Below, one piece after another: positions 526-8,549 of a stretch of DNA of 64,000 nt (its first letter is position 1; the number at the start of each line of letters is the position of its first letter). The stretch spans positions 434,001-498,000 of the forward strand of contig OZ025790.1 of the NCBI GenBank assembly GCA_964019425.1, read 5' to 3'. The notes below the pieces were generated by a model, which saw only the letters and a program-made list of their open reading frames with translations, had not been told where the DNA came from and searched no databases. A program made the position numbers and the translations under genes. Origin of the DNA: Flectonema sp. DT1601. Lineage: Eukaryota.

Positions 526-3500
526 ATGAAGACCGCCGCCGTTATGTTGATGGGACTCACCGGGCTCGCCCACGGTCTCACCGAAGAGTACGTTCAGTCG
601 AACGCCAAGAGCATGTGGGCGTCCTTCAAGAGAGACTACAACAAGTTCTACACCCCAGCTGAGGAAGCGAGAAGGTTTCAGATCTTCCAGGACAACATGA
701 TGAAGGCCATCCGTCACGAGAAGGAGACTGGATCCAGCCACGGAGTCAACGCCTTCGCTGACTTGACCGCAGAGGAGTTCAAGGTCAACCACAACCTCCA
801 GGTTCCAGAGAAGGAGAGCCCAGCCAGCACCTACACCGCTGAGGAGATCAAGAAGGCGCAGGCCACCTCCGTTGACTGGAGAAGCAAGGGAGCCGTCACC
901 CACGTAAAGAACCAGGCTCAGTGTGGATCTTGCTGGGCGTTCTCCACCACCGGAGGAATTGAGGGACAGTGGTTCTTGGCTGGAAACACTTTAACATCTC
1001 TCTCAGAGCAGGAACTTGTTTCATGTGACAAAACCGACTCAGGTTGCAATGGAGGGTTAAGGGAGCTGTGCATTTGCCTCCTCGGGGCGCTCCTGGACAC
1101 CGGAAACGGTAGACCGAAAGATGCAGAGGCACCGACAGCACCACCAGCACCGTCAACACCACCAAACACCAACAAACCGCCGGACCCCGACAGGCGAGAA
1201 GGATGGAAGGTCCCTAACGGAGACCCAGCAACACCGCGCAAGGAACGGAACCGGAGAGCACACGCTCTCAACGGAAACGGGCCAAAGCCCTCGCCTTCTA
1301 CCAAAAAAAGGGCGAAGGGAGGATCCGAATCCTCCTCAGAGGAAGACCCATCTCTGAGAGGGATGCTCCAGGAGAGCCAGGAGCAAGCGAAGAAGGACAG
1401 GGAGGAAGCGAAGGAGCTGCGTCTCCAGATCGGTACGCTGCTGAAGCGACTCGACGGAATGGCGGAGCAGCTGAAGAAGAGCTCAGAGCAAGCGGAGAAG
1501 GAAGCCGAACGTAGGGAGCGAAGGGAACAGGTACTCCATAAGAACTACCTGGACCTCGAGGAGAGGTCGAGACGCGTCTTCGCGGAGAAGGAAAAAGAAG
1601 CGAAGGCGACGGCGACACGGGCGAAAGAAGAGACCGCACAGGCGATCAAAACATTACGCGAAGAACATGCCAAGCAGGTGGAGGCCCTGATGGCGGAAAA
1701 GACGGAAGGACCGAGGACGAAGAAAATCGTCAAGAAGAAGAAGAAGGAGGAGAAGGCGGCGGATGGCGACACCGTCATGGGCGGCGAGGAGTTGGCGGCG
1801 GTGTCCGAGGCCGACCAACTCGGCCAGACGGAAACCCACCAACTCAACGCGGAGGAGGGGAAGGAAAGGAAGGCCGCAATGACTCTGCGGAAGAAGGAGT
1901 TGGAGACGAAGGCGGAGGAGGAACTGCTGGGGAGGATGAAAGCCAGCGCGGCCCAGATCAAGTGGGAACAGGAAGAGAAGAGAGAGAAGGAGGCGACGGA
2001 AGGCTGGTCCCTACGGCAGGGGGACTGGTACTCGACAGTGAGATCAGTCGAGGAGATGGAGAAGGAGAAGCGGGGAGTGGCGTTGATGACGGCCGGTACC
2101 GCAAGAAAATGGATCGCGCGGCGGGTGGCACTGTCGGCGTGGGAGTGTCTCAGCCTGGTGACGATATCACAGGTAACGGAGACCAGTAGATCGGAACAGG
2201 TGCTCCTGGAAAAAAAGGAGGGGAAGGAAGGATCCGCGATCCAGACGAGGATAACCATCGTCTGGATCACGGATCTAGGAAAGGAGGCCCAGATGAAGGG
2301 CATTGTTGGATCGGGAGGCGTCGCTCCCACGACCGAATTGGTCGTGAGGGCGACCAAGAAGAGATGCTCGGCGGAGGACTGGAAACGATTCCAACGAAAC
2401 CCGAAGAGAGTCACAACCTGCCTGAGGGAAATGAAGGGTTTCGTGGACGGATATTTACCCAGGATAAACCCAGAAGAAGCTTCGGCCGTAGTAAGGGTTA
2501 GAGAGGAAGAAGTGGAGACCTTCCTTCGGACATCCGGAAAAGCCGGGGTTTTCGTGATGGAGAAATCCAGGAACGAAAACAGAGCTATCATCTGGCTCCC
2601 GGGCGAAGAAAAACTGGACGATGCTCTGGTGAAAGCCGAGGAGGACCCGAACTGCATCGGACTGGTGCAGAACAAAGACGGCCTGGGAATGAGGGTGAGG
2701 AGATCCGGAGAGAACACCTCCAGGAGGAAGCTGGGCATCCCAGCGAAAATGCCAGAAGCGAAGGTTAGCGGCATACCGCTGGGGATGACTGCCGATGAGG
2801 CAGTCAAACAGCTGATAGCTGAGGAGGGATGGGACGTCAGGAAGACCTGGGAAGGAGTGAGAGACGGTACCCGCTGGATGATTGTGAGGGGCCCGGAGAG
2901 GGAGACCGACACCGTTGCGGTGGGAGGGAAGCTCTGTCTTGTCGAGAAGGTGGGACAGAAGCCGAAACAAAATGGTGTGAAACGCGTTGTAGCAACACCA
3001 CCCGAAACGCGAAAAGACCCGACGGAGAACAACGGGAAGCGATACTGCAAGACCGACTTCCTGAAGTTCCATGGGAAGAAGAAGGGATCGAAGCTCTGGA
3101 GGGACGCTGGAAGATCGGATACACCGAACACACCACCGAAACCACCTCAAGCACAAACACAACCGCCACCGAAACCAACGCAACAACAGAAACCGACGGC
3201 GGGATCCTCACTGGAAGCGAGAATGGAGAGGTTGGAACTACTGCTGGCGGCTGTTCTGGAGAAATCGCAATGACTCGGAACCTCCACAACACAGAAAGAA
3301 GAGGAAGCGGCTGGACCGACACAGGACGGATTGGGGACGACAACGCAACAATGAGACTCCCTTCGGAATTCTCGGTGGCAACGGTGAATACCACGACGAT
3401 GATGAAAAACGTCGCAGCGGTGATAGCGCTGGACGCCGACATCATCCTAGTGCAAGAGACACTTCTTTCTGAAACAGAACAGAAGAAGATGCTCAAACAA

Positions 3501-6500: not shown

Positions 6501-8549
6501 GACGACATCTTTACCAATGAGAATGCCGGAGGTGGGGACAAGACGTGCAAGAACTGTACAGAGGATGGTGAGGAAAAGGTGGAATCCCTTGACCACAACT
6601 TCTGGATATGCACATCATACGACGAAATCCGTTCTGAATTTCCTGACGTAATGCATGTTTACTCAGAATCCTGGCCACCATGTCTGAGACTCTGCGGGAT
6701 AAAACCTCTGGAAATGGAACTTCCGAACGGAATCACTGGGAGGATGCAACTGATGTTGGCGCGAATCAGACTCGAGAGAGACAGAAGACGTTGCGATCGG
6801 ACGGCACGACCGACCACCACACTGAAATACGCCGGCGACTGGAGCTCCGAAGAGATGATCTCGTACCCCAACAACCTGGCCCGATACATGCCTAACTACC
6901 GAGCCTGGCCGGGATGCAATACGAGAGAAACATACCTCGCGATTGCAAGCTACTTGAACAGGATCAAGTGGGCGGCAAGGAAGGACGGAAACGGGATAAC
7001 CTTCCTGGAAATGGCGGTGGACTTCGAGATCTGCACGGGAATCAGATTGAAAGAAGCCACCACCAGCCACACCGAAAGCACCCACCCGATTTCAATGGAC
7101 AAGAAATCGAGGACCTTCGCCAACCTACTGGTGAAGATAGACAGGATCGCGAAGGAAATGGACGGACCGGACAAGAGAATCTACCCCGATGGCAACATCA
7201 AGGAAGTGATCAAATCTCTACGACCGCTGGACGGACCGAGAATTGCGGGAATCGACAGGAGATCGACGTTCCTCGGAGGTGAAGAATCTGCCCGGAAGGT
7301 GGAAGACCTGATCTCGGACGCACACGAGAAGAAAGACCTGTACCCCGAACAACCTTTCGGCAGCAACACGTTCATCGAACACCCGCCGGGATGGGAAAAG
7401 AAAGCTGACATTTGGAGGAAGACTGCTTCCGAGGAACCCTCACCTGAATGGGATGCGAGATGGACGGTGATGCGTGAACAAGAGGACTCAGTTGTGGCCC
7501 CGGAGGAAGCAACGAAGAGACCACCGCCACTAGGAAAAAAGCCACCACCGGTATGCAAACTTCACCGCAAGGGGAAGTGCGCGACATGCGACAACGCGGT
7601 GGAAGTGGCAATCTACGAATGCTGCTACAACCACCACCGAAATGACGAATCAGACGGACTGACCCCCGTCTGGGACTTCTGCACGAAGCACAGAATGACG
7701 GCATGCGGGAGTTGCTACTCGCAGAGGAAGACAGCCGACACCTGCTGCGGGAAGTACCATCACAGGTGCAAACAACACGACAGACCGATCTGTCAAAGCT
7801 GCGGTCGCAACGCGAACCGGTCGCACCGACTGGCATCCTGGTGCTGCTCACACAAACACCACGGACAACTGCCACCGAAACCTGCCCCTAAACGGAAGAC
7901 GAAGAAGGAAGTGAAGGGACAGGGAACCCTGCTGGGCCTTGGTTTCACCAAGGAAAAGACGGGAGACGTCGAGGGGAGACGGGAGGGTAAGGGCCTGACC
8001 TAGATAGGTCGGAAAAGTGTCGCATCATCCGACGGGGCTGTCTTTGTACAGACTGGGTGACGGCACTCAAAACTAATCATATAAGGTTGCAATGGAGGGT
8101 TAATGGACAATGCTTTCGCTTGGTTGCTTAAGGAGAACAAGGGACAGATCGTAACTGAGGAGTCCTACCCATACACCTCGGGAGGTGGTGTGTCGGGAAC
8201 CTGCAAGGGATACGTTGAGAAGAAGGTTGGTGCCACCATCAACTCCCACAAGGACATCGCCCACAACGAGGACGATATGCAGGCCTTCGTGTCCACCAGC
8301 GGACCGCTCTCGATCGCTGTTGACGCCGCCAAGTGGCAGACATACACCGGAGGAGTGATGACCAACTGCTGTGAGTTCTGCACCCTTGACCACGGTGTCC
8401 TTATTGTTGGATACAGTGCTGACTACTGGATCATCAAGAACTCTTGGGGAGCAAGCTGGGGAGAGTCTGGATACATCAGAGTTGCCAAGGGAAGAAACGA
8501 GTGTGGACTCAACAAGTCCCCATGCACTTCGATCGTCAACAAGAAGTAA
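526..8549 (+). CDS. Papain-family (C1A, cathepsin L-like) cysteine protease interrupted by a retrotransposon; parts 526-1060 and 8104-8549 rejoin to 326 aa
   Basis: Signal peptide, I29-type prodomain ([19 protein letters not shown]), QCGSCWAFS, then after the insertion LDHGVL and IIKNSWG. Removing the insert plus one TSD copy restores [13 protein letters not shown] in frame. Confidence 0.95.
1041..1060 (+). repeat. Target-site duplication, left copy (AGGTTGCAATGGAGGGTTAA)
   Basis: Identical 20-mer at 8084-8103. Confidence 0.97.
1061..1125 (+). ncRNA. HDV-like self-cleaving ribozyme at the 5' end of the retrotransposon
   Basis: P1 GGGAGC/GCUCCU (G1-U wobble), P2 UGCAUUU/AGAUGCA, P3 GCC/GGC, L3 UCCUCGG, GG for P1.1, P4 ACCG-GAAA-CGGU, J4/2 CGAA. 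Confidence 0.88.
1363..3273 (+). CDS. Retrotransposon ORF1 (coiled-coil, basic; frame is open back to 1061, first in-frame ATG at 1363)
   Basis: Long E/K/R-rich coiled-coil region followed by a globular region; lies upstream of pol; its stop overlaps the ORF2 ATG. Confidence 0.75.
3270..8003 (+). CDS. Retrotransposon ORF2: APE endonuclease + reverse transcriptase + CCHC finger + C-terminal Cys/His repeats (1577 aa)
   Basis: APE motifs [30 protein letters not shown] motifs [36 protein letters not shown]...HNFWIC. ATG at 3270 overlaps the ORF1 TGA (ATGA). Confidence 0.93.
8084..8103 (+). repeat. Target-site duplication, right copy
   Basis: Identical to 1041-1060. Confidence 0.97.

Follow-up and report, generated by a model that had tools for sequence, protein, structure and literature searches.

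The 64,000-nucleotide stretch of Flectonema sp. DT1601 analysed here (contig OZ025790.1, positions 434,001 to 498,000 of the forward strand; hereafter the window) contains a papain-family (C1A) protease gene that is interrupted by an insert of about 7 kb. The 5′ half of the gene (526..1042, + strand) encodes an I29 prodomain and the catalytic-Cys region (Pfam I29, E 2e-13; Peptidase_C1 positions 3-70, E 1.6e-25), and the 3′ half (8086..8549, +) encodes the catalytic His region (Peptidase_C1 positions 65-218, E 7e-40). The insert, at 1061-8083, is a full-length long interspersed nuclear element (LINE), that is, a retrotransposon without long terminal repeats (non-LTR) of the apurinic-endonuclease (APE) type. 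It shows the hallmarks of this class, with an apurinic-type endonuclease followed by a reverse transcriptase (RT) within one open reading frame (ORF), a 20-bp target duplication, and a 5′-truncated copy elsewhere (in protein P0200), and self-comparison of the window revealed no terminal repeats. A preliminary description of this DNA had proposed that the insert could be spliced out exactly as a GT-AG intron, and that the LINE targets AGGT proto-splice sites and thereby neutralises itself. Here we consider what the element does at this gene and how far that proposal holds.

At the 5′ end of the element (1061..1125, +), a descriptor match predicts a self-cleaving ribozyme of the hepatitis delta virus (HDV) type, with P1 (including a G1-U wobble), P2, P3, L3, P1.1, P4, and a J4/2 with C at 1115. 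The descriptor, which was composed after the sequence had been inspected, matched one start site on the + strand of the 64 kb, none on the − strand, and none in 20 shuffles. No Rfam ribozyme family matched at this end, and simple folding, unable to model the pseudoknot, gave 1061-1140 a structure no more stable than those of shuffles (z -0.26). Because the predicted fold begins at 1061, the predicted cut falls 18 nt past 1043, in line with the earlier caveat that the ribozyme would cut 18 nt into the supposed intron. ORF1 (1060..3273, +) is an open frame that continues the frame of the protease 5′ half, with its first in-frame ATG at 1363; it matches no Pfam family and has no relative beyond its own protein cluster. 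A near-palindrome of 45 nt lies within it (2231-2275). The ORF1 stop overlaps the start of ORF2 as ATGA. ORF2 (3270..8003, +; 1577 aa) encodes the endonuclease (Pfam Exo_endo_phos, E 1.1e-10), the RT (RVT_1, E 1.6e-23), and a Cys/His-rich C-terminus, and no Pfam family, RNase H included, was matched at E<=5 in the residues past the RT. The 3′ untranslated end (8004..8083, +) has no poly(A) tail; its last 20 nt are A-rich, with a branch-like CTAAT at 8073-8077, and its predicted fold is not above that of shuffles (z -0.5). Given that the 12 members of the ORF2 protein cluster are 98.6-100% identical to the ORF2 of the window, the family is young.

The longest duplication found in the self-comparison is 20 bp long and begins with AGGT, and its copies lie at 1041..1060 and 8084..8103 (both +). 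The left copy carries the proposed donor, CAG/GTTGCA, with GT at 1043-1044, and the right copy supplies the proposed acceptor AG at 8084-8085 (AAG), exactly as first described. Deleting 1043-8085 (7043 nt) yields a 981-nt frame with a single terminal stop, and the product, a papain-family protease of 326 aa, is identical to the database protein P0188 over 326/326 residues, which bears out the statement that this deletion restores the protease. Both halves of the gene are indeed intact, and recent insertion explains this, since copies of ORF1 show 0-6 residue differences and those of ORF2 are almost identical. Any 20-bp duplication, whatever its sequence, permits exact removal in 21 equivalent registers, and if it holds AGGT, one of these registers is GT-AG, as is the case here for 1 of the 21. 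AGGT occurs somewhere in 102 of the 962 20-mers of the protease coding sequence (10.6%) and at the start of 6 of them; for 20-mers of the window outside the protease, the proportions containing it are 5.4% (+) and 6.6% (-). The chance of an exact GT-AG excision is about 1 in 10 for a single site, and about 1 in 160 if the place of AGGT at the very start of the duplication counts as meaningful. Thus, since any duplication allows exact removal and so many 20-mers contain AGGT, exact GT-AG removal is weak evidence when taken alone.

Copies in protease paralogues and in a second gene family

Other copies of the element are known from predicted proteins alone, and therefore their junctions were compared at the protein level. 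The 10 members of the ORF1 cluster comprise three protease-ORF1 fusions, four fusions to a second host frame, and three proteins without an identifiable flank, and in 7/7 fusions the junction is the first base of the element. The protease fusions are P0057 (the window), P0056, and P0061 (full-length element); the protease half of the last two is only 59% identical to that of the window, yet it is joined at the same codon. The four protease clusters compared (types A-D) contain six broken 5′ halves (P0057, P0056, P0061, P0200, P0190, and P0206), and each of them ends directly past the codons for GCNGGL. P0200, which belongs to a third paralogue type, runs on at the shared junction into residues encoded by 4351-4389 of the window and thus represents a 5′-truncated copy, and P0024 is a truncated ORF2 that matches it and lies on a contig of equal length. 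P0190 (on 2 contigs) and P0206, from two paralogue types, have in common a 25-residue tail that is absent from the window, which suggests that a second, different element occupies the same protease codon. The protease halves are 59-85% identical between types while the ORF1 copies differ at so few residues, and the insertions must therefore postdate the divergence of the paralogues.

Six 3′ halves were also found, all starting at the Met after the site, and 17 members of the four clusters, including P0188, are uninterrupted there. P0188, whose contig is as long as that of the window, may be a neighbouring intact copy, a spliced model of the window locus being less likely. The site is likewise unbroken in the listed members (15 of 23 and 10 of 10) of two additional protease clusters, which may belong to other assemblies. 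The copies with a readable flank lie in sense orientation inside coding sequence, as would be expected from the sense-oriented exon insertion suggested earlier. Contigs from one sequencing run that aligned to 300-10000 include near-identical pieces of both protease halves and two joints from diverged homologues; the 1042/8086 joint was not found among them, such contigs being able to show presence but not absence. In one contig of this run (X1), a match to 8080-8251 without any difference is followed by 310 letters unlike the window, and the protease 3′ half is preceded by four bases identical to the end of the element. The insert in P0190 and P0206 and the X1 sequence may stem from another family of elements, from a partner that is not autonomous, or from a genuine intron at this site.

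In the other four fusions (P0058, P0059, P0062, and P0063), the first base of the element is joined to a different host frame of 35-36 residues, at one shared codon of an unrelated multicopy gene family. This frame continues in the uninterrupted relatives P0233 and P0234, which have a common N-terminal region and diverge thereafter, and P0233 has a weak HNH_2 match below the cut-off. The architecture of the family (these six proteins and P0235), with its many copies, shared N-terminal region, variable C-termini, and weak HNH match, presumably recalls RHS/Crinkler-type families. When back-translated, the last 20 nt of this second target are compatible with the protease duplication at 13/20 positions, a value attained by 1.4% of the 20-mers of the protease and 0.9% of those of the window. 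In the register used at the protease, no choice of codons would let a 20-bp duplication of this target begin with AGGT; the tetranucleotide is possible only at offset -11, and only with one of the possible Gln-Gly codon pairs. Thus, the proposal of AGGT proto-splice targeting survives in part: the element does seem to target a site, but the idea that this site is in general an AGGT proto-splice site is not supported. In both target families the insertion comes after the first base of a codon, although in-frame cases are favoured by the way in which copies are detected. With ORF1 in frame with the host gene in both families, host-ORF1 fusion proteins could come from uncleaved transcripts.

All six broken protease 5′ halves and the four second-target fusions are therefore found at fixed positions, and the two targets account for 7 of the 10 members of the ORF1 cluster, a count biased towards in-frame flanks. 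At the protein level, targeting is well supported.

Splice signals and rival explanations

For comparison with the ends of the insert, we assembled a set of host introns from 14 candidate regions of the window, of which 11 joined frames and 3 did not; one tandem duplicate was omitted, leaving 10. These introns were chosen by eye and partly by GTATG, which makes the comparison partly circular, and three of them have a second GT that keeps the frame. The two host intron ends quoted in the preliminary description proved to be genuine frame-joining acceptors (22494 and 57054). Positions +4 and +5 of the host donors are occupied by T and G, respectively, in 10/10 cases, and host acceptors are CAG in nine and TAG in one. 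This agrees with the Diplonemidae logos in the available part of a published survey, which give a (G)/GTATG donor, a CAG acceptor, and YTRAY in 8-16% of introns (PMC12621601), and the donor and acceptor of the element consequently depart from the host pattern. The donor, GTTGCA, lacks both the +4 T and the +5 G; its score is -0.4 bits, whereas the host introns reach 5.3-12.2, and it takes rank 84 among 254 GT sites. The acceptor AAG is found in 0/10 host introns, which carry C nine times and T once at position -3, and the tract before it scores -0.5, while 9/10 host tracts score at least 6.5. The original warning that both splice sites are weak was thus well founded. The best host-type donor of the region is instead CCG/GTATGC within ORF2 (7551..7556, +; rank 1 of 254, 9.9 bits). 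If this predicted donor were joined to the acceptor at 8085, ORF2 would be cut to 1432 aa, losing its Cys/His-rich tail and the 3′ end of the element, and the protease would not be restored; such a splice could be a route of host or self-control. A non-canonical intron of the euglenid/hemistasiid kind was considered and rejected, as in none of the 21 registers do the 9-nt ends pair more strongly than -2.3 kcal/mol.

We consider it probable, at roughly two chances in three, that the insert is a sequence-specific LINE that has redundant protein-coding genes as its safe haven. The element likely recognises a short sequence at its target, and each occupied gene is likely left broken rather than spliced. 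By analogy with R2 and L1Tc/ingi, host transcription would run into the element and the ribozyme would free the element RNA at 1060/1061, after which the endonuclease would nick the target and reverse transcription would be primed there, giving rise to the 20-bp duplication. ORF2 would be translated through stop-start coupling at ATGA, and gene redundancy would bear the cost of the insertion. As there is no poly(A) tail, read-through protease RNA could pair with the nicked target, sharpening specificity in a manner similar to that of R1.

Several points weigh against this explanation. The 13/20 match at the second target is modest, and 3 protease 20-mers score higher. The remaining copies, being proteins, come without a duplication or a codon sequence, and a junction can be recognised only if its flank has an open frame in phase with ORF1; in-frame coding targets are thus favoured, and the proportion of 7/10 overstates them. 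P0060, P0064, and P0065 may sit elsewhere. P0188 could be a spliced gene model of the window locus and not a second copy, although the occurrence of the unspliced fusion and the 3′ half in the same protein collection argues, without proving it, for a gene caller that is blind to introns. The activity of the ribozyme is a prediction. Finally, 8085 is the only AG among the 587 of the element that has both YTRAY and no more than two G (criteria set post hoc), and a gene-breaker pure and simple would not need such an acceptor-like 3′ end.

The last point speaks for the intron proposal. According to this proposal, a target-specific LINE would also be a spliceosomal intron, with some transcripts spliced before the ribozyme cuts, so that the protease is still made; the GT and AG would come from the duplication, and the branch point and A-rich tract from the element. 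The exact GT-AG register with AGGT as the first four bases of the duplication, the exonic CAG before the GT, and the Ser-Gly codons, able to spell AG/GT, that are retained in six of six broken 5′ halves at the protein level would all fit such mimicry. The branch-point-like motif reported at the 3′ end is also real, as CTAAT lies 8-12 nt upstream of an AG whose tract ranks 10 of 622 AG sites, making the end unusually acceptor-like; YTRAY alone precedes 74/587 AGs in the element and 1090/3296 AGs elsewhere. A-rich 3′ ends are, however, usual for LINEs. Judging from those portions of the literature that were available, A-rich tracts occur in Diplonema japonicum (PMC12621601), non-LTR introners are known (PMC12130899), and long introns of Diplonema papillatum hold transposable elements (PMC10161547), which amounts to insertion into introns. 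The insert is like an introner in its GT-AG ends and in the frame that its removal restores, but its donor and acceptor are unlike those of the 10 hand-picked host introns and the published logos, and a far better donor exists at 7551. Furthermore, the predicted ribozyme would cut after the first 18 nt of the intron, when 7 kb has yet to be transcribed, and in mammalian reporters splicing was blocked by fast ribozymes placed in introns (Fong 2009, according to the accessible text of PMC10919898). The second target can offer AGGT only at its one displaced position, and the single protease site constitutes a single independent test, with a probability of about 10% by chance. Self-neutralisation by splicing is therefore the part of the preliminary description that we do not retain, given that the splice sites are off the host pattern and that intact paralogues explain the tolerance of the insertion and remove the need for splicing. 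From sequence evidence, an intron is possible but disfavoured, and we regard its combination with targeting as unlikely. The same doubt applies to its fullest version, a ribozyme-headed autonomous LINE that homes to a conserved protease codon and whose transcripts either splice, giving protease, or self-cleave, giving element RNA. If true, this would be the equivalent in eukaryotes of a homing group II intron, but dependent on the spliceosome and in competition with a second element for its site. Splicing, even if proven, would have a precedent because non-LTR introners exist; in that event, the novelty would lie in the combination of homing with a ribozyme and splicing.

The fixed position could also reflect copying instead of targeting, if a single insertion had been passed from paralogue to paralogue through gene conversion or recombination within the conserved stretch around the site. 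The paralogue proteins are identical for about 18 residues ahead of the junction, the 5′ halves of P0056 and P0061 are identical, and the four second-target copies, whose contigs are all of one length, may partly be tandem duplicates. Nevertheless, conversion would leave unexplained the 5′-truncated copy in P0200 with its junction at the same base, the occupation of this codon by another element in two types of paralogue (P0190 and P0206), and the unrelated second target with its related motif, whose flanks (P0058 versus P0059) diverge far more than the elements do, and we consider it improbable. That the junctions are artefacts of assembly or gene calling around a repeat seems very improbable. 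It is true that the other copies are known only as predicted proteins and that the contigs of the sequencing run, subject to the limit given above, do not cover the element, but the duplication is perfect, the predicted ribozyme starts exactly at the junction, the frames are intact, and the same junction recurs on several contigs of hundreds of kb.

Other features of the window

The protease gene is flanked on both sides (311-340 and 8827-8858) by a T-rich motif, about 30 nt long, with CTACAGGT at its end; this motif may be a trans-splice acceptor or may mark the border of a duplicated unit. Beyond it, at about 8900-9030, lies a short decayed fragment resembling small-subunit rRNA, with a weak Rfam match at 8953-8980. 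A decayed RT fragment (34909-35191) is 66% identical to the element over 303 nt. In the regions at about 31780-33050 and 35200-35380, a GC-richer frame with a Cys-rich N-terminus (about 32180-33000) lies close to two AT-rich stretches that resemble each other, and may be the remnant of another mobile element. Two malate dehydrogenase-like genes (27527-28540 and 30269-31306), recognised by eye, are near-identical and have the same 78-nt intron. The long host introns at 45098-46898 and 53910-57054 contain tandem repeats with units of about 113 nt and 160 nt, as judged by eye, and the gene that holds the second of them is one that we take to encode a major vault protein.

Relatives and comparison with known systems

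The protease has 88% identity to a Flectonema protein, and the ORF2 of the element is 49-50% identical to Flectonema neradi proteins in EukProt and 30-34% identical to Diplonema papillatum "R2-type Pol polyproteins". These likenesses point to a host that is likely a diplonemid, a marine protist, of the Diplonemidae. In a tree of 13 RT rows, a set without labelled clade references, the elements from diplonemids group together with 100/100 support. Unlike the element of the window, the F. neradi and D. papillatum relatives have about 145-215 extra residues ahead of the endonuclease. Related elements with such an N-terminal extension are also represented by P0003, P0004, P0005, and P0053; the extension of P0053 presumably contains an OTU-protease-like motif, which is absent from the element of the window. 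A metagenome scan for related loci gave 11 distant ones, with 24-28% identity, and no protease flank was seen by eye in the 3′ parts of 2 of these 11. None of 65 viral contigs had a related locus, and prokaryote genomes gave only 5 weak RT matches. In the literature that we searched, which left Repbase and most subscription journals outside, there was no report of a protease-targeting LINE or of a site-specific LINE from diplonemids.

Site-specific LINEs are known mainly from RNA genes and simple repeats, and the RHS genes are the one protein-coding case that we found. An active APE-type LINE that finds one codon in enzyme genes that are 59-82% alike, and a related motif in an unrelated family, would provide natural variants for studies of target reading, a property of these enzymes that bears on retrotransposon-based gene insertion. 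In the host protist, the copy number of a protease would depend on a mobile element. Moreover, a fixed site with intact paralogues makes intron gain at AG/GT duplications directly testable, and the lineage has a genetically tractable relative.

The closest known case is that of ingi/RIME and L1Tc/NARTc in trypanosome RHS genes, which, like the element of the window, are euglenozoan LINEs. The ingi/L1Tc elements have a duplication of about 12 bp, an RNase H domain past the RT, and a poly(A) tail; the element of the window differs in its 20-bp duplication and in the lack of an RNase H match. Its targets are papain-family proteases and an unrelated family, and it has two ORFs that overlap at ATGA. 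As described in the available text of PMC7563717, the RHS genes present one insertion site in a protein-coding multigene family, with split pseudogenes and more than one element type at the site. A 5′ HDV-like ribozyme releases L1Tc/ingi-type LINEs from host co-transcripts and is also present in R2, as far as the accessible part of PMC4035085 reports; the element of the window shares this trait as a prediction based on a descriptor fold, not on likeness to the Pr77 sequence. Because there is no RNase H match, and because no named ingi or L1Tc sequence was among the matches of any search to serve as a reference RT, we do not place the element in the ingi clade.

A fixed site in a repeated gene is likewise used by R2, R1, Tx1-clade elements, CRE/SLACS, and Utopia, and has been discussed as a survival strategy of site-specific non-LTR elements (PMC4640811). 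The targets listed in the available part of that review are rRNA, spliced-leader, tRNA, and snRNA genes, transposons, microsatellites, and telomeres, with no protein-coding genes among them. R2, CRE, and Utopia have a restriction-like endonuclease, whereas the enzyme of the window element is of the apurinic type. With regard to introners, these may co-opt splice sites from the target duplication (PMC11282704, in part), and about 5% of the classified families are non-LTR, most being non-autonomous (according to the accessible sections of PMC12130899). By definition, introners are spliced at many unrelated loci, whereas the sites of the element described here are few and fixed, and its splice signals are poor for its host.

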